Below are positions 7,107-42,700 of a stretch of 64,000 bases of DNA, in pieces. The DNA comes from an uncultured Gammaproteobacteria bacterium (lineage in GTDB: Bacteria > Patescibacteriota > Microgenomatia > UBA12405): the NCBI GenBank assembly GCA_964448705.1, contig CAYUZS010000002.1:113577-177576 (forward strand), given 5' to 3'. The position numbers and the translations under genes are program-made. Under the pieces are notes generated by a model. The model saw nothing but the letters and a program-made list of their open reading frames with translations. It was not told where the DNA came from and ran no database searches. Each line of letters begins with the position of its first letter. The stretch's first letter is position 1.

Positions 7107-7122
7107 AAGATTTTATTTTATG

Positions 7123-26062: not shown

Positions 26063-27015
26063 AAATTTTTAGTAATCCGATTTAATAAATGTCTAATTTT
26101 AATAAAGACCAATTTAAAAATATTGCCAGAGTACTCTTCTTTAAAATATTTAGTAAACCAATAACTATATTCAAATATTGTTTCCTGACTGGCAGAAACA
26201 AAAGATTCTTTGGAGAGAACTTTATCGGAGGAACCTTGTTTTTCCCAAAGACGAACATAAATTAATAAAATGGCAAAAGCTTGCAACAAGGAAAAAACTA
26301 AACCATGAATTCCATCTTTATATCCACCGGCGGCAAAAAAACGACTATTGAATTCCTGAGTTGGTTTTAATATAAAGTCCGAAGTTTTGAGTTTATAGCC
26401 GGAGGCTTTTAGCTCGTCAGCCTGAACACCACTGTAACGAACGGCCCGGTTAACAAATTGAGTGATACTGTCGTAATTATGATGTCTAATGGCCAGTTTT
26501 TCGGTGTCCAGAATGGTTAAACCATTGCCTTTAGTTTCCGGTTGGCTGTGGATTATTTTACTCCAGGTGACATGGCCTTTTTTGAAAAATCTAATAACGT
26601 AATCCGGCCAGGTACGGGAATGACGAAGCCATTTACCAAAAACTAGGTTCTTACGGGGTATTTTTACCCAATCAATATCGGATCTTTTGGTAATACTTTT
26701 TAATTCCGATTTTAAAGTTTTGTTTAAGTATTCATCCGGATCGAGAAGGATAATCCATTTACCGGTGGCTTTGGAAAGAGCAAAATTTCTAGCAGGTTCG
26801 ACAACTGTGGTCCAACGATAGGGATAAACTATAGCACCATATTCGACAGCAACATTATCACTGCCATCAGTAGAATGCATGTCGACGACAATAATCTCAT
26901 CAGCAAAATTCTTGAGTGATTTTAAACATTTTCTGAGGTTTTCAGCTTCATTTCTAACATTAATTACTGCTGATATTAAGGGTTTATTTTTCATAAGGTA
27001 CTGATAGTTTATCAC
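26059..27015 (-). CDS. Glycosyltransferase family 2
   Basis: ISAVINVRNEAENLRKCLKSLKNFADEIIVVDMHSTDGS. Confidence 0.8.
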   Translation of the reverse strand: MINYQYLMKNKPLISAVINVRNEAENLRKCLKSLKNFADEIIVVDMHSTDGSDNVAVEYGAIVYPYRWTTVVEPARNFALSKATGKWIILLDPDEYLNKTLKSELKSITKRSDIDWVKIPRKNLVFGKWLRHSRTWPDYVIRFFKKGHVTWSKIIHSQPETKGNGLTILDTEKLAIRHHNYDSITQFVNRAVRYSGVQADELKASGYKLKTSDFILKPTQEFNSRFFAAGGYKDGIHGLVFSLLQAFAILLIYVRLWEKQGSSDKVLSKESFVSASQETIFEYSYWFTKYFKEEYSGNIFKLVFIKIRHLLNRITKNF

Positions 27016-28667
27016 CTTTGCACCCGGTAGATAAGACTATCCTCATTTTCGAAAATCTTGGATAAATAAAGATTGGAAACATCCAAAAGATATCTTTCTT
27101 TTTGAACACCAGCTAAGTAGATATAATCGATCTGATTATTGACTAAAAAACCACGATCTTCATAGATATTTTTTTGAGAAAAAAATGATTCCGACTGCTG
27201 CCGTCTGGAAGCAACATCATAACCGGAATTTTGATTGTTCATTTCATCTTCTAAAAATACCGGTAAACGGCTATAAGCAGAAACATAGGCGGTGGTTTCA
27301 TAAGCATATAAAGGAACCGGTTCCGAGAGACTCTGTTTGAGATATTGATCGTATGGAACTGTGAGAACAGTACCTTTAGCCTGTTGGGAAAGATAATCCA
27401 GGGCGGAAAGCTCGCCTGTGGTTAAAACAGCCGGAGGAACACGACCAAGATAATTCGGCCAGGATCCTAATAACGACAAAAAATAGGTAGCAAAAATGAT
27501 AAAGGTTAAACCTTTATGTTTTTGTAAATAAGAAGCTAAAAAAAGATTACTGAGAAATAGGGCATAATACAAAAATTGAATAGTGTTCCAACTGGTACCT
27601 TTTTGAATAAAAAAGGTGGGAATTAAAGTGAGAACAAAAATATTTATTAAAAGAATCAATGAAAATTTGTCCCGAAAGTTAGTTTTTAAAAAGCCCAATA
27701 ATCTCCAACCAAAATTACCAATAATAAACAAGAAAAAAGTAGATAACATGAGGATTAAATATCTGGGACCAATTTTGCCGGAGGCTTCGAGAGTGTATCT
27801 CATATTAGCCAAATAAGGTATGAAAATTCTGTCGGGAGATTCGATCATGGAATTGATAAACCAAAAAGGTCGGAAAATCATTAGACCGGAAGATTGAGGG
27901 TTGTAGTTGAAAAACAAAATTAAAGCAACAAACAGAGAGAATATGGTTAATATGATATTTTTTAACGATTTGGAATGGAGAGCATATAATCCAAAAACAG
28001 AAAATCCAATTACAGCTGAATAAGCCTTGGTTATCGGTAAAAGTATCAATAAGAAAAATACGAAAAGTGACTGAAAAAGAGTTAAATTTTTATTAGAAAA
28101 ATTCCGATAAACAATAATTAACAAGACTAATAAAAAAATAAGTGAAAGAGTGTACGGCGGATTGATCTGATTACTCGGAGACTGCATAGCCCAAAAGATG
28201 GATTCACCGTCAAAATTACCCCGGGTAAGAAGGGTGTATATCCAACCAAAAGAATTGGCCAAGGCATTTAAAGAAAGAAACAAGATACCGCCTCTAAAGC
28301 CGGCAGTAAACATTTTTCCTAAGACAAAACTTAGCCACAAAAAGAGAAAAGAAGAAATAATAGGGAATATTTTAAAATACCAAACAGAAGCAGAAATACC
28401 GGATATTTTGACAAGGAAGCTGATTAAAATATCATAAAAAGGATGATAGTTTTTTAAAGTTTCACCGGCAAAGATAGGCATATCGATTTTTAGAGGATTG
28501 GAAATATTGTTTATTAAACTCAAATGCCAAACAGCATCGTGGCCGTTGGCACCCCAAAAACCGATTCCTATTTGACTTTGATGACCGCTTTTAAAGAGAG
28601 GAATAACCTGAATAATAGTTCCGATAATTAAAAATATGATGAGAATTATTTTTTGGGAACGAGCCAT
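27012..28667 (-). CDS. Large polytopic membrane protein, unknown family (possible polymerase or GT-C-like)
   Basis: About 14 hydrophobic segments. The first loop carries GFWGANGHDAVWHLSLIN. It sits between GT2 genes and the flippase. Confidence 0.45.
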   Translation of the reverse strand: MARSQKIILIIFLIIGTIIQVIPLFKSGHQSQIGIGFWGANGHDAVWHLSLINNISNPLKIDMPIFAGETLKNYHPFYDILISFLVKISGISASVWYFKIFPIISSFLFLWLSFVLGKMFTAGFRGGILFLSLNALANSFGWIYTLLTRGNFDGESIFWAMQSPSNQINPPYTLSLIFLLVLLIIVYRNFSNKNLTLFQSLFVFFLLILLPITKAYSAVIGFSVFGLYALHSKSLKNIILTIFSLFVALILFFNYNPQSSGLMIFRPFWFINSMIESPDRIFIPYLANMRYTLEASGKIGPRYLILMLSTFFLFIIGNFGWRLLGFLKTNFRDKFSLILLINIFVLTLIPTFFIQKGTSWNTIQFLYYALFLSNLFLASYLQKHKGLTFIIFATYFLSLLGSWPNYLGRVPPAVLTTGELSALDYLSQQAKGTVLTVPYDQYLKQSLSEPVPLYAYETTAYVSAYSRLPVFLEDEMNNQNSGYDVASRRQQSESFFSQKNIYEDRGFLVNNQIDYIYLAGVQKERYLLDVSNLYLSKIFENEDSLIYRVQR

Positions 28668-30100
28668 TTTGTTTGTTCAATAAACCAATTAATCTCACGT
28701 TTAGAAAAAATGAAATGATAAACAAAATAAACAGTGACTCCGATTAATATTTTAATTACGATGGACATTATTAAGTTTAAGTGAAGATAATTAACCAATA
28801 AGAGCAAGAAAACGATTGATAGGGAAGCGATCAGCGGATGAAAAATTGTTTTGATTATATTAATAGAAAAAAGCCGGTTGGCGATATACCAGACAACAAA
28901 AGAACTGGAACCGACAATTAAGGCGGCGACAGCTGTTCCCATATAACCATAACGATAACTTAAGAGCGGATAAAAGATCCAGGTGAGAACTGTCCACATA
29001 ATCATGAGTTTGGTGGTGATGCCGATTTTACCGATGGCATTAAAAGCGTTGGTTAGAGGGGTGGTGACAGCGGCAATGGCGGCGTTTATTGCATAAAAAT
29101 ACATCGGAACAATAGCCGGCAGCCATTTTCCATACTTCGGAATTAAGTTAATAAGATCCGGAGCAATCATAGCAATTCCGGCCAGAACCGGAAAAACAAA
29201 AAAAGAAATATAGTAGATACTCTTTTCAATGGAACGGCGGAGAAAATCTTTTTGTTCCTGAATTCTGGCAAAAGTAGGAAAAGTGACTCTCATAATGGCA
29301 TCCATAAAACTAAGCGGAATCCGGGGGCCTTTTTGAGCCCAAGAGAGAATACCAAAAGAATCACGGCCGATAATTCCGGCAACCAAAAGATTGGATAGTC
29401 GATCTTTGGCCATGGCAATAAAAGAATTTAATTGGAAAGGAATTCCAAAACGGAATAGTTTTTTAACCGAGACAAATGAAAAGGAAAAACCGATCGGCCA
29501 CGGACTTAAGCGATAAATAATTATTAGACCGACTAAACTGCGAATAAAAGTAGAGATGGCATAAGAATAAACACCGAAATGAAAAAATGCCAAAACAACA
29601 GCAACGACATAAAAGATTGTATTTTCGATGATATCAATGGTCGATAATATTTTAAAATTTAACTGTCTTTCCAAGAGAACAGAAGGAATGGTTTTGAGTG
29701 AAGCAGCCGCAAAAGAAAAACATAAGGAAATCAAAATCCACATTTCTTTAGAACCGTAACCTTTAGACAGACTGATACGCGGATAAATTAAATAGACAAC
29801 CAACAAAGCAATAAACACTAAAAACTGTTGAATTAAAAATGTAGTCTGTAATTCTTTTTTGGTGACAGATTCTTTTTGTTGAATCAGGGCAGATGCTAAA
29901 CCGACATCAGAAAAATAGCCTAAGATTCCAACAGATTCGGCGACGATAGCAAACAAACCAACCTCTCCGGTACCAAGGAGGATGGTGAGCAAAAAAAAGC
30001 CAATAGTGGAAATTGCCTGAATGCCGATATTTCTGAGAGACAAAAAGACAACACTGACGGTAGTTTTTTGTTTAATTTGTTCGACGTCGATGGATGTCAT
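28646..30100 (-). CDS. Wzx-like oligosaccharide/polysaccharide flippase (MOP superfamily)
   Basis: 484 aa with 12-14 TM. GTGEVGLFAIVAESVGILGYFSDVGLASALIQQKE resembles the conserved N-terminal region of polysaccharide-biosynthesis (Wzx) proteins. Confidence 0.6.
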   Translation of the reverse strand: MTSIDVEQIKQKTTVSVVFLSLRNIGIQAISTIGFFLLTILLGTGEVGLFAIVAESVGILGYFSDVGLASALIQQKESVTKKELQTTFLIQQFLVFIALLVVYLIYPRISLSKGYGSKEMWILISLCFSFAAASLKTIPSVLLERQLNFKILSTIDIIENTIFYVVAVVLAFFHFGVYSYAISTFIRSLVGLIIIYRLSPWPIGFSFSFVSVKKLFRFGIPFQLNSFIAMAKDRLSNLLVAGIIGRDSFGILSWAQKGPRIPLSFMDAIMRVTFPTFARIQEQKDFLRRSIEKSIYYISFFVFPVLAGIAMIAPDLINLIPKYGKWLPAIVPMYFYAINAAIAAVTTPLTNAFNAIGKIGITTKLMIMWTVLTWIFYPLLSYRYGYMGTAVAALIVGSSSFVVWYIANRLFSINIIKTIFHPLIASLSIVFLLLLVNYLHLNLIMSIVIKILIGVTVYFVYHFIFSKREINWFIEQTKWLVPKK

Positions 30101-31859
30101 TTTTTAGAATGCGGATTGATAAAAATAAAATAAAGACAATCGAGATTAAAGAAATTAAATTACCAAGAATTCTGATAGGAGTATTGTGCAGTTGAAGATA
30201 TATTTGATGTTGACCGGCATCTAAATTGAGAGAGATTCTGCCCAGCAACGGTTCGATTTGATAGGCAAGCGGCTGTTGATAATCGTAAATTTTAAATTCA
30301 GGAAAGGCCAGGACCGAGAGATAAACTACTGCCGGTTTTTCCAAATATATATTAAATAATTGCCAATCACTCCCCTTCTTTTGACCGGTAAGTTGATAAT
30401 CGACATCGGCAGGAATGATTTGATCGACATATTCTTTGGCCGGACCTTTGGGAGCAGTGGAAGCAGTTTTAGGAAGATAATCATAGATACCTCCGGTGAC
30501 CTGATTAATCCACGCCTGACCACTGAATTTTTGAGAATCTGTAATCGGTCCGTAGGTAATGGGAGTGAAATGAGAAATATTTAAGATAAACAGAGCGACA
30601 ATCAGAGCAGAAACTAGGTAAAAGTGTCGGGGTTTAAATTCATGTTTTAAACCAAAGATAACCGCAATAAAACCCGGAATTAAAGAGAAGAAAAATTCGG
30701 ATATATTCAAAAAACGCCATGGAAACTGAATTTTTTGAAGGGTAGGAAATAATTTCCAGATAAAAGTCGAACGTTCATGAGCCATGAAAGTGCTGCCAAA
30801 AGCCATTAGAACTAACAAAATTACGACTGTGTCTAACTTATTTAAACGTTTTTTGAAAAATTTGAACGCCAAAGGAATCATTATCAGCAGAGGCAGGAGC
30901 CAATGAAGATAGCCAACCGAAAACGGCATACCATCATCAGTTCCCCAAACTGAAGGTCCATCACCCCAAAAATTACTGATAAATAGCTGTTTAAGACTGA
31001 CAAAGTGGATGGCGTAAGTATAATAGTTAGTAAACATGGTTTCGATTTGAGTAAGTGAGGATTCAAAAATCACCGGCAAGGTGAAAAAAGCCGAAATACC
31101 AAAACCGAGAATCACTGCCAGGGCTAATTTAATAATTGTTGGGATAAGATCGGTTAATTTTTGACGTTTGGAGACAAAAAGCCAATATAAAGACCAGACT
31201 AAAACAAAGGGAGAAAAGATTAATAACATGGGATTATGAGAAAGCATAAGTCCCGATAAAGACAAAGCCAGGCCTAAAAGAAAACCGATTTTTTTAGTGG
31301 AAATTAATTTTTTAGAAAAATAAAATATTAAAGGAAAGAAAACAGCAGCCCAGGCCTCATTCATGGCACCCCGAACATAAATATTTACGGCATGATAGGG
31401 AGCATATGTATAAAATAGGGCGGACAGTAAACCACCTATTTTTCCAAAAAGAGAACTGCCCAATAAATACATGGAAAAAGCGGCGAGAATTATTTGGAAA
31501 ATTGCGGTTAGTTTGACACTGGTGACAAAAGAAAGACCGAAAACCCGGAATATTTGGCCAACAAGATAGGGTAAGGGCGGATAAAAATTAAAGAGAGGAT
31601 ATCCATAACCATAGCCAAGATCAGGTGTCCAACGACAGGGAATTTGGCCATCATTGAAACATTTTTCCATCTCTAACTGCCTGATTAACTGCATATCGTC
31701 GTGCATATTCCAGTAGATTCCCGGACGCAGCAAAAAGGAAAATGCCGGAATGATTAATAAGAAAAGCAGAATAGGGATAAAAAAACGTTTTTGACTAATA
31801 TTTTGGAGACGGGAGTAAATGGTTTTTAGATTCATAAAGATGTCTTTTAATTTAATCAC
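30072..31859 (-). CDS. Large polytopic membrane protein, family B (paralog of 11866-13479)
   Basis: HDDMQLIRQLEMEKCFNDGQIPCRWTPDLGYGYGYPLFNFYPPLPYLVGQIF and the C-terminal LQLHNTPIRILGNL both match the protein at 11866-13479. Confidence 0.5.
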   Translation of the reverse strand: MIKLKDIFMNLKTIYSRLQNISQKRFFIPILLFLLIIPAFSFLLRPGIYWNMHDDMQLIRQLEMEKCFNDGQIPCRWTPDLGYGYGYPLFNFYPPLPYLVGQIFRVFGLSFVTSVKLTAIFQIILAAFSMYLLGSSLFGKIGGLLSALFYTYAPYHAVNIYVRGAMNEAWAAVFFPLIFYFSKKLISTKKIGFLLGLALSLSGLMLSHNPMLLIFSPFVLVWSLYWLFVSKRQKLTDLIPTIIKLALAVILGFGISAFFTLPVIFESSLTQIETMFTNYYTYAIHFVSLKQLFISNFWGDGPSVWGTDDGMPFSVGYLHWLLPLLIMIPLAFKFFKKRLNKLDTVVILLVLMAFGSTFMAHERSTFIWKLFPTLQKIQFPWRFLNISEFFFSLIPGFIAVIFGLKHEFKPRHFYLVSALIVALFILNISHFTPITYGPITDSQKFSGQAWINQVTGGIYDYLPKTASTAPKGPAKEYVDQIIPADVDYQLTGQKKGSDWQLFNIYLEKPAVVYLSVLAFPEFKIYDYQQPLAYQIEPLLGRISLNLDAGQHQIYLQLHNTPIRILGNLISLISIVFILFLSIRILKNDIHRRRTN

Positions 31860-31886
31860 AGTTTTGTAATTAGTGAAATCAAAACA

Positions 31887-33377
31887 CTATTTGAGCATTA
31901 AAAGCAAAAGCGAATCGCCATCCGGTTTGGGATAGCTCTGAACTAAAATTACTTTTTCCTGTTCGTTTAGATTTAATTTTATACGGCTTTGATTAATCAA
32001 CATGTAGACTTCGTCGCCATGATTCCGGGCATCAACAAGTTTTGAGGGTATTTCCGATAAATCGATTCCAACACCAAACACGGTTAATCGGGGCAGACTA
32101 TCGGTGTAAATTTGCAGACCATCGGGAAGAGTACCGAAATAACCTTCTGTGCCGACGATAACGTTGGCCTGAAGAGATCTGGAAACTAAATATTCTGAAG
32201 CCGATTTGATTCCCCAACCGGAAGTCCATCCCTGAAGATATCCGGATTCAGTGGATGGTAATTTGACAGGATACGGATTGGTAGAGATACGATAGAGCCA
32301 AAATATATTAAGAGAAAGAACCAGAACTAAGATTATTATCTGAGGATAAAAAGATTTGAAATAGCGTTTAGTGTTGAGGAAGAAATAATCGATACCGACC
32401 GATAATAATAAAATTAACGGTGGCAAGGTAAATAGGATATAACGGGCAGTAAAGACTTTGGCGATGATGGCGTTAGCAAATAGAGGTAATATCCACCATA
32501 AAGATATTAATAAAAAGTGTTTATCCGAAACTGTTTTTTTCCCGGAGAGGATAAGACCAAGGACACCAAGCAATAAAAGAGGGGGAGAAAGATATTGACC
32601 GTAGAGATGAACAACATCCCAAAGATGAGGAACCAACGGATCAAAAGGATGTTTTAATATTTCAGAAAAGGACCAAACATAGTCCAGATTTCTGACGGCA
32701 ATTTGACTAAACTGAGGCCCCAGACGAAGAATATTGTAAATTAAAAAAGCTATAAAGGCGGAAAGCAGCGGATAATATATTTTTTTATAATTATTTTTTT
32801 GAAAAAATATAAAAGTGACTAGAGATAAAGAGATAAAATAAATGGCGGGAGATTTGGTGAGCCAGGCAATTCCCAAAACCACCCCTAAAATCATCGACAA
32901 ATCCAGCCGGGGATATTTAGCCAGAAGAAAGGAAAACAAAAGGGATAAGGCCCCGAAAGATGAGAGCAGATTGTCGGGAAGAGCCATACGGTCGAAGAAA
33001 AATACAAAAGGCAAAAATAAATAAATTACTCCGGAAATAACGGCTGTCCGAAAGTTAAAAAACAGTAGAGAAAAAAGATAAAGAATAGAAGTAGTGAAGG
33101 CTCCTGAGAAAACAGAAACCAATCGCCCGGCCAGTAAAGGATCACTGATAAATTTATAGGCAACCGCAGTAATCCACATAAATAAAGGCTGTTTACCATC
33201 TGAAAGAGGAACAAAACGAAGGGTATCAACATTTTTTATGAGTTGAGACCAACGAAGGTAAATAGCTTCGTCACCAAAAACGGGAATAGATTGAAGATGC
33301 TGCAACCTTAGGACAAAGTAAACTACCAATATCGGGAGTAGTGGAAGAAAATGCTTAGGCTTTAGAGGCATAGCCAC
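31887..33377 (-). CDS. GT-C membrane glycosyltransferase, ArnT/GT83-like
   Basis: PVFGDEAIYLRWSQ after TM1 resembles the DExRYAE loop motif of ArnT-type GT-C enzymes. It has 10 or more TM segments. Confidence 0.55.
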   Translation of the reverse strand: MAMPLKPKHFLPLLPILVVYFVLRLQHLQSIPVFGDEAIYLRWSQLIKNVDTLRFVPLSDGKQPLFMWITAVAYKFISDPLLAGRLVSVFSGAFTTSILYLFSLLFFNFRTAVISGVIYLFLPFVFFFDRMALPDNLLSSFGALSLLFSFLLAKYPRLDLSMILGVVLGIAWLTKSPAIYFISLSLVTFIFFQKNNYKKIYYPLLSAFIAFLIYNILRLGPQFSQIAVRNLDYVWSFSEILKHPFDPLVPHLWDVVHLYGQYLSPPLLLLGVLGLILSGKKTVSDKHFLLISLWWILPLFANAIIAKVFTARYILFTLPPLILLLSVGIDYFFLNTKRYFKSFYPQIIILVLVLSLNIFWLYRISTNPYPVKLPSTESGYLQGWTSGWGIKSASEYLVSRSLQANVIVGTEGYFGTLPDGLQIYTDSLPRLTVFGVGIDLSEIPSKLVDARNHGDEVYMLINQSRIKLNLNEQEKVILVQSYPKPDGDSLLLLMLK

Positions 33378-34125
33378 CCTTGAGGTCGTTAATTTTTATC
33401 CGTAATATTTCTTTGATCATCTGAATTGATTCTTTTTTATAGCGGTCGTCGCCATTACCACCTTTAGTGTTGCTGGTATCTTCGTTGCGCCAATCTACGA
33501 CAATTTCTTTAATTTTATAACCCCATTTTTGGGCCATAAATAACAATTCAACATCAAAAGAAGAGACACGCCATCCTTTCTTTTCAGATTTATCCTGCAA
33601 AAATTGAAGATGTGGAAACAATGACTTGGCAACATCAGTTTTGAACATTTTAAAACCGCATTGAGTATCCCTAATATTCGGCAGCAGAACAAATCGTCGG
33701 AAGGCTAAAAATACCGGACCACCTATTTTTCTTAATAAAGAATAACCTTCACGGGATAAACCACGGGAACCGATGACGACATCATAGTCGGGAAAATGAG
33801 GTAAAAGCTTTAAAACTTCTTTAAGAGGGGTGGACTGATCCATATCGGTAAATAAAACCAGAGGATATTGAGCTTGTTGAATACCTCCCCAAACGGCTGA
33901 AGGTTTACCACCATGAGGAAGGTCGAGAACCTTAAAGCCTGGATGTTTTTTGGCGTAATCAAGAATAAATTTTAGAGAACCATCGGTGGAGGCATCGTTA
34001 CAGAGTAAAACTTCCCATTTAAAATCCCTAGTCTTTAAAAAGTCGTTAACTTCGTCTAAAACTCCCCGCTGAAGATTGTTTTCTTCGTTGTAACAGGGAA
34101 TTACGATAGATAGGCTGTGATTCAT
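33355..34125 (-). CDS. GT2 polyprenyl-phosphate sugar synthase (DPM1/ArnC/GtrB-like)
   Basis: LSIVIPCYNEENNLQRGVL...VLLCNDASTDGS plus VIGSRG. It is soluble and short (256 aa), as in Dol-P-Man / Und-P-sugar synthases. Confidence 0.7.
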   Translation of the reverse strand: MNHSLSIVIPCYNEENNLQRGVLDEVNDFLKTRDFKWEVLLCNDASTDGSLKFILDYAKKHPGFKVLDLPHGGKPSAVWGGIQQAQYPLVLFTDMDQSTPLKEVLKLLPHFPDYDVVIGSRGLSREGYSLLRKIGGPVFLAFRRFVLLPNIRDTQCGFKMFKTDVAKSLFPHLQFLQDKSEKKGWRVSSFDVELLFMAQKWGYKIKEIVVDWRNEDTSNTKGGNGDDRYKKESIQMIKEILRIKINDLKGGYASKA

Positions 34126-34154
34126 AGTTATATGATAGCATTTAACTCTTTTGC

Positions 34155-35486
34155 TTATCTCCTAACAAGTGAGTAAATTCGGTGATGAAATACTACCTGA
34201 CTATCTTTTGGCAAGGTATCGTTGGTATAGAGAGTATAGAGATGACCATTGGTAAAAATTTTTGAAGGCCGACGATAAAAAGAAAGTAAATAGTCGAAAC
34301 CAAAATCCATACCTAAGCCAGTTTCGTAAGATAAATAAAAAGGTTGATCCTGAGTTTGGGTAATGAGATATCTGATGACAGTTTTTTTGTCGTTTAAAGT
34401 GACTTGGCCGGAAGATGACGAATATTGTTTAAACAAAACAAAGGCAGTTAGAAATATAGAAACAATAATGATTAAAATAGGATTTTTTAAAAACTTAACT
34501 AATATAAGAGCCAGATAGACGGGAATTAATGAAGTAACCAAAGCGTAATAATATTCAGAGATTGCTCCGTGATAAAAAGATAAAATAATCAGCGGAAGAA
34601 GCACCCAAACAAAGGATAACCAGCGATTTAACTTTGATGACATCAAAAAAGGAGAAACCAGAAGAATAAGTAAAAATAAACTTCTTTCGATGAGAGCGGG
34701 CATAATATTCAACAAAGATAAACTACGCCAAAAACTTCTTAGCCATAAAAACGGGGAATAAATTTGGCCGGAAGAATTAGTGCCGGAGATCAATTCTAAA
34801 ATTTTTTGAGTATTCAAAAAATTATGCCTTAAATCAAAAACAACCAGAGGCAAAAAAGGAATTATAAAAGCAACAATGCCCAAAAGAATTTCTTTGAGTG
34901 AAATTTTTTGCCTGCCGATGACAAAAGAAAAAATAATGATAGGAACCAAAGAAATTGGGACAAGATGAATGTTGGAAATTAATCCGGCGAAAAACATAGC
35001 CCAAATAAAACTAAATTTATGATTGATAGCCTGATAGCAAATATAAAAAGAGATAATGCTGATAAGCGGGGCATACATGACACTCCAACAAGTTTTACCC
35101 AAGATGATGGTTAAAAATAGTGATGCCAGAAAACCGGTTAAAGGATTAAAAATTTTGGAGATAAGTATGAAAGCAGTAACGGAAGTGATGACATTAATTA
35201 AAATTAAAGCGTATTGACCGGCGACAGGATCACCTTTGGTGAAAATATAAAAAGGCAAAAGATAATAATAGTGATACGGACCGACAAAAAAACTATTCTG
35301 ATTGCTGACCTGAGGACCGATTAAAAGAGGCTTATGACGGTCGATCATAGAAACAACTTTGGCAGCATCATCCGCCTGATCCCATTCGAAAGAATAGCTA
35401 GTTGAAACTCTTTGAAAAGAAAGCAAAAAGGAAAAGAGACCGATGATTAAAATTAAAACAAGTCCAAATGACTTATTGTTGGGCAT
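34155..35486 (-). CDS. GT-C-like polytopic membrane protein (tandem paralog a)
   Basis: EWDQADDAAKVVSMIDRHKPLLIGPQVSNQNSFFVGPYHYYYLLPFYIF aligns with the neighbour's LGDQGRDVVIVSDFLKKGDLFFIGPQTSIGNMYLGPFYYYLIVAP. Confidence 0.5.
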   Translation of the reverse strand: MPNNKSFGLVLILIIGLFSFLLSFQRVSTSYSFEWDQADDAAKVVSMIDRHKPLLIGPQVSNQNSFFVGPYHYYYLLPFYIFTKGDPVAGQYALILINVITSVTAFILISKIFNPLTGFLASLFLTIILGKTCWSVMYAPLISIISFYICYQAINHKFSFIWAMFFAGLISNIHLVPISLVPIIIFSFVIGRQKISLKEILLGIVAFIIPFLPLVVFDLRHNFLNTQKILELISGTNSSGQIYSPFLWLRSFWRSLSLLNIMPALIERSLFLLILLVSPFLMSSKLNRWLSFVWVLLPLIILSFYHGAISEYYYALVTSLIPVYLALILVKFLKNPILIIIVSIFLTAFVLFKQYSSSSGQVTLNDKKTVIRYLITQTQDQPFYLSYETGLGMDFGFDYLLSFYRRPSKIFTNGHLYTLYTNDTLPKDSQVVFHHRIYSLVRR

Positions 35487-36906
35487 TTAAATTATGAATT
35501 AACCGGAAAACCTTGATGCCATTAATTTCCCATTGGGAGTCGATTTTGGCCCAACCAAAGGCGGCAACATTCCATTCCGGGTTATTAATCGGATTGCAGT
35601 CAATTTGAAAAGGTTCGCAGACAACAAAAAGCTGGTCTGTAACCTGTGAGTCGAGAGTATATAAAGGTGATTGCCATTGATTAAAAAAATATCGATACGG
35701 CGGATCGTAGTTCATTTTTGCCAGCAGAGCAAAATTGAAAGGCTGTTGATTTGAAGCAGCTAAAATTGAGCGATCAATTTCGATGGTAGTAGACAACTGT
35801 TTGGGAGGAGACCAGCGAAAAGGATTTTCCAGGAAAGAAAAAACTGTCAACGAGATTAATAAAGGAATAGCCAGAAGACGAGGCAAACGGCTAAGAAGAA
35901 AGCCAATAAGCATAAAAACTACCGGGAAAAGAAAGGCAAAATAATGGTCGTAGATGTGCTGTTTGTAGAGTCCAAGCCCGACTAATCCGGATAGATACCA
36001 AAGTAAACACACAAGATAGGGATAAAAATGTTTTTTAGAACCTTGTCGAAAAAATAAATAAATAAGACCGACAACAAAGACGATCGATATTATGAGGCCG
36101 AAAGTAACATCTTTACCGGCTAAAAGCCGGGTGTTGACCTGATTAAACAATTCAGGAATAACAGGCAGTGATTTGTAAGCTTTCAAATTAACAGTGGTTT
36201 CTCTTTGAGTAAAAAAGGTAGTTAGAGCTTTAAAATTTTGGCCCTGATGTTTAAGGTCAAATAAAATTTGAGGGGTTAAGGAAAGAATAAAAACCAGAAC
36301 GGCCAATAGCGTTTCTTTAAGATGAAGCCGGGGTTTGTTTTTGAGCCAAATAATAAATGCCGGAGGCAATAAAAGCAGAGCTAAATAATGGGAATTTAAA
36401 CACATGATAAAAGCTAAAGAAGCATAAAGATATTTTTTCTGAGTAACAAAATAAATGAACATAAGTGAAAAAAGAGGCATAACATTGGGATTCCAGGAAA
36501 AATTCGAGTATTTAATAACTACCGGAGAAATAGAATATAGAAAAGCGGATAAATAGGCAGTTTTAGTGTTAAACCAGCGGCGGGAAATATAAAAAATTAA
36601 GGCCACGGTTAAGACGCCCAGGAGTGCCACAAAAACGGCCGGACCGATGGGATTAAAAAAAGCTAAAAGAAGCGAAGGGGCGACAATGAGGTAATAATAA
36701 AAAGGACCGAGATACATATTACCAATACTGGTTTGAGGACCGATAAAAAAGAGATCACCTTTTTTTAGAAAATCACTGACAATAACCACATCCCGTCCTT
36801 GGTCACCTAAAAATTCCATATAATCGGAAACTTTAAAAAGACGGAGAAAAGCTGCCAATACTAAAATTAAAACCAGCAACCAATATTTTGATAAAAATCT
36901 TTTCAT
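35473..36906 (-). CDS. GT-C-like polytopic membrane protein (tandem paralog b)
   Basis: See the tandem-paralog alignment for 34155-35486. It has 12 or more TM. The acidic loop DQGRD follows TM1. Confidence 0.5.
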   Translation of the reverse strand: MKRFLSKYWLLVLILVLAAFLRLFKVSDYMEFLGDQGRDVVIVSDFLKKGDLFFIGPQTSIGNMYLGPFYYYLIVAPSLLLAFFNPIGPAVFVALLGVLTVALIFYISRRWFNTKTAYLSAFLYSISPVVIKYSNFSWNPNVMPLFSLMFIYFVTQKKYLYASLAFIMCLNSHYLALLLLPPAFIIWLKNKPRLHLKETLLAVLVFILSLTPQILFDLKHQGQNFKALTTFFTQRETTVNLKAYKSLPVIPELFNQVNTRLLAGKDVTFGLIISIVFVVGLIYLFFRQGSKKHFYPYLVCLLWYLSGLVGLGLYKQHIYDHYFAFLFPVVFMLIGFLLSRLPRLLAIPLLISLTVFSFLENPFRWSPPKQLSTTIEIDRSILAASNQQPFNFALLAKMNYDPPYRYFFNQWQSPLYTLDSQVTDQLFVVCEPFQIDCNPINNPEWNVAAFGWAKIDSQWEINGIKVFRLIHNLNAQQ

Positions 36907-37628
36907 TTATGAAAGGTCATGTTTAACCAAAGACGGAAAAGATCAGCGAAACTTTTAATAATGACATTTATATGACGACCGGTGGCGGTGCCGGCATTTC
37001 GGGGATAATGGTGAACACCGACTTCGGTAATTTTGAAGCCGGCTTTTTTAGCTTTAATTAAGAATTCACTGCTGATAAATGCTCCCCTCTCCGATTCTAA
37101 CTTGGGAATGGTGTCGATGACCTTTTTATTTACTAACTTGAAGCCGCAATCGATATCCTTAACTTTTAAACCAAAAAGGACAAAAACGATAATTTCCCAT
37201 ATTTTGGAAGTTAAAATAACAACTTTAGGAACCTGACGTTGGAGATAATAGCCGATAACCAAATCGGCATAAGTGCGTTCCTGAGTATCGATAAATTTGT
37301 CTATTTCAGAAAAATCAAACTGACCATCTGAATCAGTAAAAGCGATCCATTGATATTGGCAGTTATAGAAACCGCTTTTAAAAGCAGCACCATATCCACG
37401 ATTGGGATGATGGGTGACAATTTTGGTTTGTCGGGGATAATCCTGATGAATTTCAGCTAAAATCTCGGCCGTTCTGTCTTTGGAACCGTCATCAATGAAT
37501 ATTATTTCCCATTTTTCGGCTGTTTTTTTAATAACCGGCAATGCCTTTTGAAAAGTGGTTTTAATGTTGGCTTCTTCGTTATAACAAGGGAAAAATACTG
37601 AAAGTTCTTTTAGTCGATGTTGACTCAT
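36903..37628 (-). CDS. GT2 polyprenyl-phosphate sugar synthase (DPM1/ArnC/GtrB-like)
   Basis: LSVFFPCYNEEANIKTTFQKALPVIKKTAEKWEIIFIDDGSKDRT. It is 241 aa and soluble. Confidence 0.7.
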   Translation of the reverse strand: MSQHRLKELSVFFPCYNEEANIKTTFQKALPVIKKTAEKWEIIFIDDGSKDRTAEILAEIHQDYPRQTKIVTHHPNRGYGAAFKSGFYNCQYQWIAFTDSDGQFDFSEIDKFIDTQERTYADLVIGYYLQRQVPKVVILTSKIWEIIVFVLFGLKVKDIDCGFKLVNKKVIDTIPKLESERGAFISSEFLIKAKKAGFKITEVGVHHYPRNAGTATGRHINVIIKSFADLFRLWLNMTFHK

Positions 37629-37668: not shown

Positions 37669-37696
37669 TTGACAGAACAGCTATTATTGATATAAT
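37669..37696 (+). promoter_or_regulatory. Near-consensus sigma70 promoter (TTGACA, 16-nt spacer, TATAAT) upstream of 37727 CDS
   Basis: TTGACA at 37669-37674, TATAAT at 37691-37696 and a GTG start at 37727. Confidence 0.5.
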
Positions 37697-37726: not shown

Positions 37727-38359
37727 GTGAATAAAAATAAACTAATTTCTACAATTTGTTTGGGATTAAGCGCGTTATATTTGGCGAGCTTTTTGAATGC
37801 CAAAACTGCTTTTGCCCAGTACTATAGCCAAGGAGAAGGTAGTAAACAGATTATCGTTGACAAAAAAGTACGACCTATAAATGATGATACTTTTTACGAC
37901 AATATTGATCCCGGAAAAAAGACATTTATCGACGGAGAACAATTGGAATTTAAAATTACCGTTAAAAATACCGGTGAACAAATTTTGTACAACATCGAGG
38001 TAAAAGACATCTTACCCCAATATTTAACACTTTTATTTTTTCCCGGTGTTTACAACAAAACTGATAATAATTTGGTTACTAAAATTGATCAGCTTAACCC
38101 CGGAGAAAGCAAAGACTTTTATATCCGAGCCAATATAAGCTCCGTGCCGAAGTCAACAGTCGAAGGTAAAAAATGGCAGCAAATCAATAAAGCTACTGCG
38201 ACCACCGATTCGATCTCGGACAGTGATCAAAGCCAATATTTTATCAGCGGAAAATTGATACCCGCTACCGGTGATGAAGATTTAATGACAAAAACAATGG
38301 GGTTACTGTTGGTTTCAGTGACTGCTTTTGGATTACGTAAACTGGCCCGCGGCTACTAA
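37727..38359 (+). CDS. Secreted DUF11-like (conserved repeat domain) surface protein with C-terminal sortase sorting signal (IPATG)
   Basis: Signal peptide MNKNKLISTICLGLSALYLASFLNAKTAFA. FKITVKNTGEQILYNIEVKDILPQYL resembles a DUF11 repeat. The C-terminus is ...LIPATGDEDLMTKTMGLLLVSVTAFGLRKLARGY, giving an (L/I)PxTG motif, a hydrophobic stretch and a basic tail. Confidence 0.65.
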   Translation: MNKNKLISTICLGLSALYLASFLNAKTAFAQYYSQGEGSKQIIVDKKVRPINDDTFYDNIDPGKKTFIDGEQLEFKITVKNTGEQILYNIEVKDILPQYLTLLFFPGVYNKTDNNLVTKIDQLNPGESKDFYIRANISSVPKSTVEGKKWQQINKATATTDSISDSDQSQYFISGKLIPATGDEDLMTKTMGLLLVSVTAFGLRKLARGY

Positions 38360-38365
38360 AATCGA

Positions 38366-39556
38366 CTATTTGGTAATTAAACGAAGACTCATAATTAATC
38401 CGGGGCTGTAATGTTGACTGAATTCCTGATCGGCACCATACCAAGGATCGTGAATCTTGTAGTTACCATTAGAACCACTGATAATGACGATAAAATGCAT
38501 CCCGGAAACCGTCCCAGACATTTTTATCTGAGCAATAACATAACGACCATTTTTTAGCTCACTATCGACGGTAGCGGCACTATAAGCCACCTGTTTATAA
38601 CTATAACCATCGGGAGGAATCGGCGGCAAAGCGTAAGCGGTGTTAAAGCGAAAATAACCAGGGGTAGCAGCATACACTGAAGGAGTGATGTCGTGACCGA
38701 GTTTTTTATAGACCATAGAGATACTGGTTAAATAACAGCCGACAGCACCGACAGTATCACTTGAATTACCAATAGTCTGACGACACCAACGAGGATCACG
38801 CTGTGAATAAAAATTACCATCGCTGCCGCCGCCCTGAGCCGAATCAAGACAAGTAGAACCACCGGCTGAACTGGCGAAGCTTTTTAGAGCATTTAATTGA
38901 GAAACCGCTTCGGCCAACAACTGCTCGTATTTTGTCTCGTCATTTTTAGTGGCAGTGAGCAGGGCGTTTTTGGAAGCCTTCTGCTGATCCAAACTTTTTT
39001 GTTGAGAAGCCAGTTGAGTTTCTAAAACCTGAAGTTCTTGCTGTTTTCGCGTTTTTTCGTCTTTTTGGGTATCGTAATTGGTGCGGGTTGTTTCCAGTTG
39101 GACTAAAGTATTTTGACTGTTTTCCTGAATAGTCGCCATGTATTTATATTTCTCCAGGATATTGTTGAAGTTGGTGGAAGTGAATATAGAAAAAGAAGGA
39201 TAACGTTTGGACATTTTGTAGTTTTCCGTTACCTGGCGAATATAGACCGAGGACAATTGGTTTAATGAAACATCTAAATCGCCTATTTTTACAGTCAAAT
39301 CAGCAATCTCTGCTTTCAATGATTTAATGCTGTTTTGAGTCTGAGAAATTTTAAGGGTAGTAAGCTCGATTTGAGAATTTAGAATACTGATTTGATTGGC
39401 AAGAGTGTTTTTGGCTTTGCCAAGCTCGGACAGCTTTTTGGTGTACTCGGTAATTCTTTGATTGATTTCTTCGGCTTCGTCGCCACGAATAGTAGAAGGA
39501 GGGACAAATACAAAAAGAAAGATTAGTGAGAGCAGAGCAAAAAACAAATTTTTCAT
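38366..39556 (-). CDS. Secreted coiled-coil cell-wall hydrolase with C-terminal C39-like Cys/His peptidase domain (PcsB/CwlO/EnvC-like FtsEX partner)
   Basis: N-terminal signal/TM followed by about 200 aa of heptad-rich coiled coil. The C-terminal domain has YSQRDPRW...GAVGCYLTSISMV (Gln plus catalytic Cys) and GMHFIVIISG (His). It lies immediately downstream of ftsE-ftsX on the same strand. Confidence 0.6.
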   Translation of the reverse strand: MKNLFFALLSLIFLFVFVPPSTIRGDEAEEINQRITEYTKKLSELGKAKNTLANQISILNSQIELTTLKISQTQNSIKSLKAEIADLTVKIGDLDVSLNQLSSVYIRQVTENYKMSKRYPSFSIFTSTNFNNILEKYKYMATIQENSQNTLVQLETTRTNYDTQKDEKTRKQQELQVLETQLASQQKSLDQQKASKNALLTATKNDETKYEQLLAEAVSQLNALKSFASSAGGSTCLDSAQGGGSDGNFYSQRDPRWCRQTIGNSSDTVGAVGCYLTSISMVYKKLGHDITPSVYAATPGYFRFNTAYALPPIPPDGYSYKQVAYSAATVDSELKNGRYVIAQIKMSGTVSGMHFIVIISGSNGNYKIHDPWYGADQEFSQHYSPGLIMSLRLITK

Positions 39557-39562
39557 TAGAAC

Positions 39563-40435
39563 TTAAAATTTAATGTATCTTTTGACACCCAACCAACTGG
39601 CTAAATAGCCAATAATGCTGCCTAAAAACAAGCAAGAAACAAGAATAAGAGCGTAATGCTGTAGGTTTGTGGAGATAAAAATAATGGGATTAAAGAAAGA
39701 ATTGATTTGATTACGAAAATAAAGAGTAAGGAGGAAAACAATTAAACATCCCAAGAAGCTGCCGACTAGGCCATAAATAATGCCTTCAATCAAAAATGGT
39801 TTTTTAACATAGAAACTGGAAGCGCCAAGAAGACGGCTAATATTGATTTCATCTTTTCGGTTGGTAATTTTCATACCAATAATTACGGAAATGATTAAAA
39901 AGGTGACTGCGGTAGTAATAGAAACTGCAATTATTCCTGTTTTACGGATAAAATCCGTCCAACTGAGAAGCGAATTGATGATATCTTTTTGATAAATTAT
40001 TTCGTCAACCTGGTCTTTTTTAGTAGAAAAGTTTTGGGCAATTTCTTCGAGTATTTTTGGATCCGAGACAGAAACTTCGAAAGAGGCAGGAAGGATGCTG
40101 GCAGTGACCATTTCGGTTAACAGAGGATTGTCTTTATTCTCTTCCTGATAAATTGCCAAGGCTTTTTCTTTGGAAATAAATTTTATTTCCCGAATATTTT
40201 GATAATTGGATAATTCTTTTTGGATATTTTCGACTGTAGAACGATCCAGACCATCTTTAAGAAAGATGGTAATTTCCGGTTTAGTTTCAAAATAATTTAA
40301 GACAGTCGACATTCCCCCGCTGACGATCAGAAAAAAACTGAGAATCATGAAACTGATGGTCATAACAATAGCCGCGATTAAACTTTGGAAGGGAGAACGG
40401 CGAATATGGTGCCAGGCGTTTTTGAAAGGGGTCAT
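39563..40435 (-). CDS. ftsX: Cell division permease FtsX
   Basis: 290 aa with an N-terminal TM, a large extracytoplasmic loop and three C-terminal TM. It overlaps ftsE by 4 nt. Confidence 0.75.
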   Translation of the reverse strand: MTPFKNAWHHIRRSPFQSLIAAIVMTISFMILSFFLIVSGGMSTVLNYFETKPEITIFLKDGLDRSTVENIQKELSNYQNIREIKFISKEKALAIYQEENKDNPLLTEMVTASILPASFEVSVSDPKILEEIAQNFSTKKDQVDEIIYQKDIINSLLSWTDFIRKTGIIAVSITTAVTFLIISVIIGMKITNRKDEINISRLLGASSFYVKKPFLIEGIIYGLVGSFLGCLIVFLLTLYFRNQINSFFNPIIFISTNLQHYALILVSCLFLGSIIGYLASWLGVKRYIKF

Positions 40436-41124
40436 TTCTTTTTTGAATGAGTATGGGGTTTTTTAGTATCGGAAACAATTTCTCCGTTTCTAAGGCCGAT
40501 GATTCGTTTATCCAAGGCATTTACAATTTCCATGTTGTGACTGGTCATAATAATAGTAGTGTCGTATTGTTCGTTAATATCTTTAAGGAGTTTTATTAAA
40601 TTCCAGGAATTTTCTACATCCAGATTGCCGGTGGGTTCATCGGCAAGGATTATTTTTGGTTCAATTACCAAGGCTCGAGCCAAAGAGGCACGCTGCATCT
40701 CGCCTCCGGAAAGTTGAGAAGGAAAAAGATGACGGCGACTACCTAAATTAACCTGTTTAATCACATTTTCTATTTTTTCAGGGATAATCGCCTGTGGAAC
40801 ATTGTTAATATCGAGGGCCAGAGCAATGTTTTCTTCGATAGTTTTATCCGGAATCAATAAATAATCCTGAAAAATAACACCAATTTGACGGCGGACCTGA
40901 TTAACAGAATTCCGATCCAGAGTAGAAAGATCATGATCACCGATAATTATTTTTCCACTTGAAGGGCGGATTTGATTGAGGATTAATTTGAGCAGCGTTG
41001 ATTTTCCGGCTCCGGAAGGACCGACTAAAAATACGAATTCGCCTGAATCTATGGAGAAATCTATGTCCTTTACAGCATTGATGACACCAAATGATTTGGT
41101 GACGTGGTCAAAAATGACTTTCAT
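40432..41124 (-). CDS. ftsE: Cell division ATP-binding protein FtsE (ABC ATPase)
   Basis: Walker [13 protein letters not shown] signature [15 protein letters not shown] and Walker [12 protein letters not shown]. Confidence 0.85.
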
Positions 41125-41668: not shown

Positions 41669-42700
41669 TTAAAGAGATTCTTTGAGGGAATCGCTGATAA
41701 ATTTCTGGAAGCTACGGTAGTTTTTGTCTTGAGGAATAAACACCCACTGTTTGTTGATAAAAGTCTTAGGATGATAAAGGAGATCTGATTTTGGATTTTC
41801 TCCGGTAGTAAGGTTTATTTTGTTAAAGGAGAGATTTTGGAGATGAGTTAAACCCTGAAGGCCTAAACTGAACAAATCCCTGTCGGTGAGATTGGTCTGC
41901 AATTGCTGATGGAAAAAATTATAGAGATTAACCAAATTGTCAGGACGGTAATAAAAATCAGGAGATTTAATTTTGGCCAACAAGGCATCCAGTAATAATT
42001 GTTGACGTTGAATTCGGCCAATGTCAGTTCCCCCCAGAGAGGCAGTTTCGGCACTTTTGCGGGAACGGACAAAAGGAGCAATGTTTTGACTGTTTAGATG
42101 ATTGATTCCGGAGGGAAATTCAACAGTAATGTACACAGGAATAGAAGCAGAAGGGCTGGCAACGTACGCCGGATTAGGATATTGATCGTCACGAAAACCG
42201 TTCTCTAAATTAACATCGACACCGCCGACTAAAGAAACTAAATCGATCAGATTTTGGGTGGTAATAACTAAAGTACGATCAACCGGTTGATCTAACAATT
42301 GCGAAAACTGTTGTTGAATATATTCAAACTGATCAGAACGACCGATAGACTGCGGGTAAATTTGATTTATTTTGGCATTTAGAGGATAACTCCATAAATC
42401 ACGAGGCAGGGAAATCAGATTAATCCGATAATTCGGAGTAAGATTGCTAAAAATTATCGTGTCAGTGGTTTCAGATTTTTCCAAACTATCATTACGGGGA
42501 TCGAGACCAAGAATCATAAAATTTAAAGGCGGAGAAATAGACGGCTGTTTTTTGGCCGATATTATCTCTTTAGGAAAGTATAAAAATTCAGTATTGGTAG
42601 CCAGGGAAATTGTTTTTAAGCAGACAAAAACCACAATTACTGCCAATATAATGATGGATATTAAGGTGTAAACAAAAGAAGTAAATATTTTATGTGGCAT
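41669..42700 (-). CDS. LytR-CpsA-Psr (LCP) family glycopolymer phosphotransferase
   Basis: N-terminal TM, then FMILGLDPRNDSLEKSETTDTIIFSNL...LISLPRDLW, which matches the LCP domain pattern (G.D.R...R.DTI...SIPRD). Confidence 0.65.
   Translation of the reverse strand: MPHKIFTSFVYTLISIIILAVIVVFVCLKTISLATNTEFLYFPKEIISAKKQPSISPPLNFMILGLDPRNDSLEKSETTDTIIFSNLTPNYRINLISLPRDLWSYPLNAKINQIYPQSIGRSDQFEYIQQQFSQLLDQPVDRTLVITTQNLIDLVSLVGGVDVNLENGFRDDQYPNPAYVASPSASIPVYITVEFPSGINHLNSQNIAPFVRSRKSAETASLGGTDIGRIQRQQLLLDALLAKIKSPDFYYRPDNLVNLYNFFHQQLQTNLTDRDLFSLGLQGLTHLQNLSFNKINLTTGENPKSDLLYHPKTFINKQWVFIPQDKNYRSFQKFISDSLKESL

Follow-up and report, generated by a model that had tools for sequence, protein, structure and literature searches.

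A conserved Microgenomates operon combining synthase-like GT2 glycosyltransferases with GT-C-fold membrane proteins

The 64,000-nucleotide stretch of contig CAYUZS010000002.1 that was analysed here (the window, with a G+C content of about 37%) carries on its minus strand a compact set of five genes, which encode two small GT2 glycosyltransferases and three large membrane proteins. These five open an operon that is conserved in Microgenomates and spans at least positions 27012-37628; their coordinates and order, as given in a preliminary description of this DNA, agree exactly with the list of open reading frames (ORFs). The nearest homologs of all proteins examined belong to metagenome-assembled genomes (MAGs) of Candidatus Shapirobacteria and other Microgenomates/Patescibacteria. 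Listed from the first gene of the operon onwards, and followed by a third GT2 gene to which we shall refer, the features are these:

36903-37628, minus strand: GT2b, 241 residues, a peripheral GT-A protein and candidate polyprenyl-phosphate sugar synthase; first gene of the operon.
35473-36906, minus strand: memB, 477 residues, a GT-C-fold membrane protein and conserved partner of GT2b.
34155-35486, minus strand: memA, 443 residues, a GT-C-fold membrane protein and variable extra copy in the memA/memB family.
33355-34125, minus strand: GT2a, 256 residues, a peripheral GT-A protein and candidate polyprenyl-phosphate sugar synthase of an ALG5/DPG-synthase-like subfamily.
31887-33377, minus strand: PMT_2-type GT-C glycosyltransferase (the 31887 protein), 496 residues, a membrane protein and conserved partner of GT2a.
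30072-31859, minus strand: PTPS_related/YfhO-like large membrane protein, a probable GT-C protein and next in the cassette (PF10131 at 21 bits, below the cut-off).
28646-30100, minus strand: MOP/Wzx-type flippase (Polysacc_synt_3, E-value 6.5e-47; NCBIfam MOP flippase, 131 bits).
27012-28667, minus strand: protein of 551 residues with at least eight hydrophobic segments and without a recognised family; last conserved gene of the cassette.
4447-5274, minus strand: GT2c, a synthase-like GT2 of 275 residues without a transmembrane (TM) helix; in the same glycan locus, away from the operon.

The first five genes are tightly packed, with overlaps of 4, 14 and 23 nucleotides and gaps of 29 and 27 nucleotides. 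At the junction of GT2b and memB, which reads aaATGAaa, the stop codon of the former overlaps the start codon of the latter. The ORF at 31887-33377 begins with GTG, and other gene callers prefer an ATG two codons downstream, giving a protein of 494 residues. Homolog searches returned numerous relatives for all five proteins, and we therefore regard the five as real genes rather than chance ORFs. No tRNA genes or Rfam families were found in the window, and a scan for promoters and terminators gave matches at chance level overall, with the sole exception of a promoter belonging to a divergent surface-protein gene that is described below.

Both GT2a and GT2b match Pfam PF00535 (Glycos_transf_2; 4e-22 and 8e-29 respectively) and are 29% identical to one another along their full length. 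Their class was judged from profile, Protein Data Bank (PDB) and fold rankings, together with a control GT2 from within the same locus (26059-27015). In PDB sequence searches GT2b ranked ArnC first (8.9e-17, residues 6-217) and GtrB second, followed by chondroitin synthase and, in fourth place, PfDPMS, while the top three matches of GT2a were GtrB (5e-12), PfDPMS and ArnC. GT2c is related over its full length to both GT2a (1e-12) and GT2b (3e-16), and its best PDB matches were again PfDPMS, GtrB and ArnC. The best PDB matches of the control GT2 were the protein glycosyltransferases GmaR and SunS; the resemblance of GT2a and GT2b to lipid-phosphate transferases is therefore specific, and not one that any GT2 would display. 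Within NCBIfam, those matches that extend beyond the N-terminal 100-130 or so nucleotide-binding residues are mostly to ArnC, a haloarchaeal Dol-P hexose transferase, PgfS, AglJ and PpgS, most of the remaining families covering just the N-terminal part of either protein. With 73.7 bits for GT2b and 38.2 bits for GT2a, both proteins fall far short of the cut-off of the ArnC equivalog NF007986 (529 bits). An AlphaFold2 model of GT2a (predicted local distance difference test, pLDDT, 88) adopts a GT-A fold, and the first 25 Foldseek matches of this model are confined to GtrB, ArnC and DPMS structures (2.6e-14 to 1e-10), after which TarS appears (4e-10). Judged by sequence and by this model, the closest resemblance of GT2a and GT2b is to known lipid-phosphate transferases rather than to other GT2s; a grouping with processive GT2s, or with those using non-lipid acceptors, was not seen in the PDB, NCBIfam or Foldseek rankings or in the control comparison, ArnC, GtrB and DPMS ranking best.

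The residues of the presumptive active site are in keeping with this classification. A DXD motif is invariant in the GT2 alignment (D94-M-D96 in GT2a, D99-S-D101-G-Q103 in GT2b), the motif of GT2b aligning with D100-A-D102-L-Q104 of ArnC; in both proteins the motif falls opposite the DADLQ of ArnC and GtrB. The basic residues at the acceptor phosphate have been equated as R122/K132 in GtrB, R128/R137 in ArnC and R117/R131 in PfDPMS, with R205 of ArnC being the donor-phosphate arginine (PMC12690121). When the sequences are aligned, R121 and R132 of GT2a, both conserved at a level of at least 90%, fall opposite R122 and K132 of GtrB, and the column of R132 is invariant across GT2a, GT2b and GT2c; GT2b appears to keep the second acceptor-phosphate position as R131, and its R210 aligns with R205 of ArnC. 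The GT2a model has long helices at residues 130-146 and 225-248, at places that would correspond to the juxtamembrane (JM) helices, and from its position in the sequence a hydrophobic helix of GT2b (136-154) would occupy the place of JM1.

Annotation and genomic context of relatives lead in the same direction. Several orthologs of GT2a at 70-84% identity are named 'dolichyl-phosphate beta-glucosyltransferase' by JGI, as are homologs in Deinococcus and Streptomyces (approximately 32% identity) by PGAP, these being automatic names; the best plasmid-borne homologs are likewise so annotated. An Arthrobacter homolog of GT2a has a GtrA flippase domain fused to it and a GT39 gene directly after it, and a Deinococcus homolog adjoins an oligosaccharide flippase. 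Orthologs of GT2b are about 70% identical across Shapirobacteria.

Two of the three membrane proteins pass the Pfam PMT_2 gathering cut-off of 26.1 bits, memB with 33.3 bits and the 31887 protein with 47.5 bits; memA has no match in Pfam or NCBIfam. The proposal that memA and memB are paralogs is borne out over their full length (BLASTP E-value 2e-18 with 22% identity over 423 columns; profile-profile probability of 100% in hhalign). They have a loop motif in common, LIGPQVSNQNSFFVGPYHYYYLLPF in the one and FIGPQTSIGNMYLGPFYYYLIVAPS in the other, within which the family conserves G57, P58, G69, P70, Y74 and P78. This is the motif that had been written as IGPQ.S....GP..YY.L.P; the sharing is correct but the spacing is not, as the distance from S to GP is 7 and 6 residues rather than four.

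A model of memA, built from an alignment of 51 family members, is of high quality (AlphaFold2; pLDDT 92.3, predicted template-modelling score 0.91), and comprises approximately 12 TM helices, an extended first external loop and, at the C-terminus, a small alpha/beta domain of about 80 residues. Compared with the PDB using Foldseek, it matches ArnT best (5f15; E-value 1.9e-6, TM-score 0.60, probability 1.00), followed by AglB/STT3, ALG12/9/3, Pmt4, AftD, AftA and the Emb proteins. The expected similarity to ArnT, PMT and AftD is thus found for memA, with ArnT the closest and Pmt4 and AftD also present, and a GT-C fold may be extended to memB as its paralog. In sequence searches of the PDB none of the three GT-C proteins had a match, to ArnT chains or otherwise, nor did any of them match the ArnT models of NCBIfam (E-value up to 0.01).

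Conserved residues of a catalytic type are present in all three proteins. Across the memA/memB family D36 is invariant; nearly invariant are Q37, D40, the R220 and H221 of FDLRHNF, and Y312/Y313. Orthologs of memB conserve D35, R38 and D39 (GDQGRD after TM1), H220 and N224, with D35 and D39 present in at least 90%. The FGDEAIYLRW loop noted previously in the 31887 protein was confirmed at residues 34-43; orthologs of this protein conserve D36-E37 (a DE motif after TM1, in at least 90%), Y40, W43 and D60-G-K-Q-P64, and further D129, R130, D159, K175 and R312. From their sequences, therefore, all three GT-C families carry conserved acidic residues in what is predicted to be the first extracytoplasmic loop. 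Profile comparison shows the memA/memB family to be distantly homologous to the 31887 family (hhalign 98.3%, E-value 2e-14), although hhalign did not align the aspartate of the first external loop of memA with the DE motif of the 31887 family, the alignment being unreliable in that part. The protein at 30072-31859 is a paralog of that encoded at 11866-13479, which passes PF10131, and has an acidic MHDD motif after TM1.

A profile search at an E-value of 1e-30 or below places 3,506 cluster representatives (50% identity clusters) in the memA/memB family. Among the best 80 genome loci all members are from Patescibacteria by record title, although some titles look wrong. The family is large, only half recognised by Pfam and, among the loci examined, appears to be confined to Patescibacteria. 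Many MAG records that contain the cassette (L009, L012, L016 and others) are titled 'uncultured Gammaproteobacteria bacterium', a designation that looks wrong from their gene content and closest relatives.

The labels 'DPM1-type', 'ArnT-like' and 'ArnC/ArnT-like' under which these genes had been described hold at the level of fold and superfamily; as statements of specific family membership they do not, no equivalog threshold having been reached. Membership of the true ArnC/ArnT system, which acts on lipid A aminoarabinose, we rejected because the equivalog scores lie far below threshold. Monoderm-like bacteria of the candidate phyla radiation (CPR) are not known to have lipid A.

Gene order was compared across 80 genome loci containing a memA/memB relative, as well as metagenomic contigs. 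A recurrent cassette emerged, in the order GT2b, memB, between one and three extra copies of the memA/memB or PTPS-like kind, GT2a, PMT_2 type, PTPS_related, MOP flippase and the 551-residue protein, which is seen in Shapirobacteria, in Woesebacteria (including the complete genomes CP066686 and CP055308) and in others. GT2b is followed directly by a memB-type gene in all 14 loci where it occurs, mostly with an overlap. The gene upstream of GT2a is GT-C-like in 31 or 32 of 33 loci (among them memA-type in 13, memB-type in 13 and PTPS-like in five); the gene directly after it is of the 31887 type in 18 of the 33, usually overlapping, and PMT-like in two. Towards the end of the cassette, a gene of the 30072 type trails the 31887-type gene in many genomes, the MOP flippase holds an identical position in Shapirobacteria and Woesebacteria, and the gene for the 551-residue protein comes after the flippase in many related loci.

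The memA-type genes behave differently, since they vary in number and position among genomes and also occur singly in unrelated contexts. At loci L004/L008 (JBAXAJ010000005.1), an ortholog of memA with 54% identity stands alone beside RecO, with neither a GT2 nor another GT-C gene as a neighbour; a short way upstream of it is another glycan cluster (Bac_transf, GT4 genes, NTP_transferase and DUF4012). Genes of the memA type are therefore not tied to the cassette.

In two cluster representatives, P0400 (733 residues) and P0387 (741 residues), a GT2 domain and a memB-type GT-C protein form a single polypeptide in that order. The GT2 part of P0400 is 41% identical to GT2b and the remainder 44% identical to memB; the gene lies at 6001-8202 of locus L090, in the same cassette on a contig of 144 kb, with a gene for a GT2-GtrA fusion upstream at 3713-4882. 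The topology of these fusions is consistent, in that a GT-A domain on the cytoplasmic side runs into TM1 of the GT-C protein. Together, synteny and fusion suggest that GT2b and the memB protein form one functional pair, and GT2a and the 31887 protein another, with memA as a variable extra. The logic of pairing a synthase with a GT-C enzyme, as first put forward for this locus, is retained, but the synteny does not support an arrangement in which both synthases serve a central tandem pair.

We consider it likely that the operon encodes a system in which GT2 synthases load sugars onto polyprenyl phosphate and GT-C enzymes transfer them outside the membrane. GT2a and GT2b would each use a nucleotide sugar to glycosylate undecaprenyl (or another polyprenyl) phosphate, and both lipid-linked sugars would then have to reach the membrane's outer face, for which the Wzx-type MOP protein at 28646-30100 is the obvious candidate. 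By sequence no other gene of the operon can be recognised as encoding a candidate flippase, and its NCBIfam matches also include TuaB and the Wzx of O-glycosylation. The GT-C enzymes encoded at 35473, 34155 and 31887, and probably that at 30072, would use the lipid-phosphate sugars as donors for an extracytoplasmic acceptor; the partner of GT2b would be the 35473 protein and that of GT2a the 31887 protein, while the 34155 protein may be an additional and evolutionarily variable transferase from the family of 35473. The acceptor might be a wall-linked glycopolymer or a surface protein, candidates being a wall polymer attached by the LCP ligase that is encoded nearby, and surface proteins such as the adjacent DUF11 protein with its sortase signal.

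Several observations count against this interpretation. GtrB, ArnC and PfDPMS end in TM helices; such helices were looked for in GT2a and GT2b, and none was found. Anchor-less members that need a partner are known in this group, among them GacI with GacJ, mycobacterial Ppm1/PpgS and human DPM1. The alignment shows a deletion in GT2b, a segment of about 10 residues, at the place where the first acceptor-phosphate arginine would lie. The fold matches of GT2a also include the retaining enzymes GpgS and MpgS, 4-5 orders of magnitude weaker, and those of memA include STT3 and AglB, whose donors are diphosphates. No ORF for a GtrA-type flippase was found in the 64-kb window, and no small membrane partner like GacJ was found in the operon and its surroundings within the window. 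The adjacency counts are conditional on the loci having been chosen by their memA/memB relative. Lastly, the fusions are two metagenomic gene models, for which errors of assembly or in stop codons could be the explanation.

The scheme itself has precedents. Multi-component transmembrane glycosylation in Gram-positive bacteria, as established for the CsbB/YfhO, GacI/J/K/L and Csd systems, begins with a GT-A enzyme that makes a C55-P-sugar, continues with a flippase of the GtrA or Wzx type, and ends with transfer on the outside by a GT-C enzyme (PMC8035078). The Gac variant of Streptococcus pyogenes (GacI/GacJ/GacK/GacL), which has a cytoplasmic GT-A protein without an anchor of its own, GacI, that depends on its partner GacJ, and a flippase of the Wzx type (PMC8035078), is the closest to the operon described here, where the GT2s are likewise devoid of TM helices, the operon includes a Wzx/MOP flippase gene and GtrA is absent from the window. 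Unlike the Gac system, the operon has yielded no counterpart of GacJ. It differs from Gac and the other Gram-positive systems in three further respects: two synthase-like GT2s (three in the window) and at least four GT-C genes are combined, the latter in one operon with the two; a synthase is translationally coupled to a GT-C protein and fused to it in relatives; and the GT-C family of 35473 and 34155 is only partly covered by Pfam.

Compared with the structurally characterised GtrB, ArnC and DPMS enzymes (PDB 5ekp, 9nyc, 9bhc, 8vxh and 5mlz), the two GT2s have in common the GT-A fold and the DXD motif; basic residues that may bind the acceptor phosphate align in part, and amphipathic helices are predicted at sites that would match those of the juxtamembrane helices. 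They differ in having just 17-25% identity, in having no TM helices as against two in GtrB and ArnC and four in PfDPMS, in the sequence of the motif (DMDQS or DSDGQ rather than DADLQ), and in lacking the C-terminal elements that form the tetramer. The membrane proteins share with ArnT (GT83) and PMT (GT39) a GT-C fold, a PMT_2 domain in 35473 and 31887, and a DE motif after TM1 in the 31887 protein and in the PMT-like paralogs of the window. Unlike these enzymes they match no ArnT or PMT equivalog, are about 11% identical in structural alignment and, in the case of memA and memB, have motifs of their own (D-Q-x-x-D, IGPQ...GP..YY and FDLRHNF).

The Pgf system of Streptococcus mutans, consisting of the GT-A protein PgfS and the GT-C proteins PgfM1 and PgfM2, glycosylates sortase-anchored LPXTG adhesins and the Ser/Thr-rich regions of membrane-associated proteins, and its authors argued for extramembrane glycosylation from the outward-facing catalytic residues of PgfM1. 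Here, too, a GtrB-like GT2 and two GT-C proteins are encoded in one operon, which adjoins the gene for a surface protein with a sortase signal. GT2b and GT2a match the PgfS model partially and weakly (54 and 41 bits, the cut-off being 500). Unlike Pgf, the cassette has no epimerase gene, and a protein acceptor is a feature of Pgf. Searches of the literature on glycosyltransferases and GT-C proteins of CPR bacteria, Shapirobacteria and Patescibacteria yielded no description of the cassette.

A different role for the membrane proteins is suggested by Agl22/Agl23 of Haloarcula hispanica, which also combine a GT2 related to dolichyl-phosphate-hexose enzymes with a PMT_2-like membrane protein. On this view the 35473 protein, and perhaps the 34155 protein, would be mainly a flippase or scaffold for the lipid-phosphate sugar made by GT2b, and transfer would be carried out by other GT-C proteins. 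Agl23 has been described as a putative hexose-P-dolichol flippase, and in proteoliposomes an oligosaccharide linked to lipid was translocated by the purified protein (PMC11182771). Among specific NCBIfam families memB has a match to just one, TIGR03663, 'flippase activity-associated protein Agl23' (E-value 4.8e-7), which memA does not match; the absence of a GtrA-type flippase from the window, and the strict adjacency and the fusion of GT2b and memB, would also suit direct hand-over to a translocator. Against this, the match amounts to 29.2 bits where the cut-off is 126, and falls in the N-terminal half, a module common to all PMT_2-like proteins. The invariant aspartate and D-x-x-x-D motif of the first outer loop and the R-H motif are as in catalytic GT-C enzymes, so that the conserved acidic loop motifs fit a transferase better than the flippase that Agl23 is described to be, and the operon already encodes a flippase of the Wzx type. 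We therefore think it unlikely that translocation is the main function of these proteins. An intermediate arrangement, in which GT2b and the 35473 protein constitute one physical machine, the GT-C protein anchoring the synthase and helping to flip its lipid-phosphate sugar in the manner of Agl23 before it or its paralog performs the transfer, is similarly a long shot; were it true, the lipid-linked sugar would be made, flipped and transferred in one channelled process that needs no dedicated GtrA-type flippase.

Alternatively, GT2a and GT2b might be ordinary cytoplasmic GT2s that extend an oligosaccharide on undecaprenyl diphosphate, or act on some other acceptor that is not a lipid phosphate, their proximity to GT-C genes reflecting a shared glycan locus only. 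The many further GT2 and GT4 genes and the Wzx flippase are what one finds in loci of the Wzx/Wzy type; neither GT2 has TM helices, their NCBIfam scores fall well short of all equivalog cut-offs, and other soluble GT-A enzymes do appear lower in the fold search with GT2a. Yet polyprenyl-phosphate transferases come first in the fold ranking, and first or close to first in the sequence rankings, in a manner that the control GT2 does not reproduce; the acceptor-phosphate residues of GtrB align with conserved arginines; the annotated homologs nearest to them carry a fused GtrA domain or adjoin GT39 or flippase genes; and GT2b is fused to a GT-C protein in relatives. This alternative thus seems quite improbable to us, in preference to which we retain synthesis of lipid-phosphate sugars by the GT2s and their use outside the membrane by the GT-C proteins.

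That the GT-C proteins instead move or polymerise whole glycans linked to undecaprenyl diphosphate (as oligosaccharyltransferase, ligase or polymerase), independently of the neighbouring GT2s, is very improbable: AglB/STT3 are the second group of fold matches of memA (E-value around 1e-4) and the operon has both a Wzx flippase and a 551-residue membrane protein without a recognised family, but ArnT matches better (TM-score 0.60, against 0.45-0.49 for STT3/AglB), the monophosphate-donor enzymes ALG12/9, Pmt4 and Aft are also matched, the C-terminal domain of memA has some 80 residues where AglB/STT3 chains of 790-870 residues have a large external domain, and coupling to or fusion with a synthase-like GT2 is a hallmark of systems with monophosphate donors. 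For memA in particular, identity as an oligosaccharyltransferase was ranked low on account of the better fold match to ArnT and the small C-terminal domain.

The cell envelope of CPR bacteria, organisms that live attached to other cells, is essentially uncharacterised. While the logic of the proposed scheme is already known from well-studied Gram-positive and mycobacterial systems, the present analysis identifies, in a little-studied lineage, a cassette that Microgenomates widely conserve and that contains two clear pairs of a putative synthase and a putative transferase. Related complete genomes measure approximately 0.8-1.1 Mb, and judged by these the host organism probably has a small genome as well. 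For such a genome to devote more than 35 kb to glycan genes, with some 15 GT-C-like membrane proteins, points to an elaborate surface coat of glycan or glycoprotein that is built externally. Heterologous expression of the cassette is a possible route to the sugars that Microgenomates display, and the natural fusions of synthase and GT-C protein offer a handle on how lipid-linked monosaccharides reach GT-C enzymes without a flippase of the GtrA type.

The operon forms one end of a larger glycan locus, over 35 kb in extent (approximately 480-37628), which contains two B12-binding radical SAM proteins, about ten GT2/GT4 genes, the MOP/Wzx flippase and approximately 14 large multi-TM proteins. The latter comprise six PMT-like paralogs (with 'DE..GYNAYS' after TM1), a PTPS_related/YfhO-like pair, memA and memB, the 31887 protein, and three without assignment; with a further PMT_2-like gene at 49497-51221, the total of GT-C-like or unassigned multi-TM proteins comes to about 15. 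The radical SAM genes are adjacent (480-2066 and 2011-3543, minus strand) at the far end of the locus, and their products may modify a sugar or a peptide. Adjoining GT2c is a GT2 gene at 3500-4447 (minus strand), the product of which has three C-terminal hydrophobic segments. Three other GT2s encoded on the minus strand (6318-7106, 24360-25142 and 26059-27015) are paralogs of one another. The last of them, the control used above, has its best match in GmaR (3e-25), and GT2s of its type often stand directly after a memA-type gene in other Microgenomates loci. The resemblance of this control GT2 to GmaR and SunS, which are glycosyltransferases of proteins and peptides, hints, from sequence, at cytoplasmic glycosylation of proteins or peptides in the same locus.

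Divergent from the start of the operon, a plus-strand gene at 37727-38359 encodes a 210-residue protein with a DUF11/CLIPPER repeat, a signal peptide and a C-terminal sortase-type signal (IPATG, a hydrophobic segment and RKLARGY). It is preceded by the promoter-like site mentioned above (37669-37696), a perfect 12/12 match to the sigma-70 consensus with an extended TG, and it keeps its position in loci whose proteins are just 35-43% identical. That the DUF11 protein is itself a substrate for glycosylation is speculation. Beyond it, 38366-41124 on the minus strand encodes FtsE, FtsX and a secreted protein of 396 residues in which a long coiled coil is combined with a C39-like peptidase domain, an arrangement that recalls wall hydrolases under FtsEX control, such as PcsB. 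This FtsEX block is conserved beside the glycosylation cassette, and is followed by the LCP ligase gene at 41669-42700 and, further on, by a sortase.

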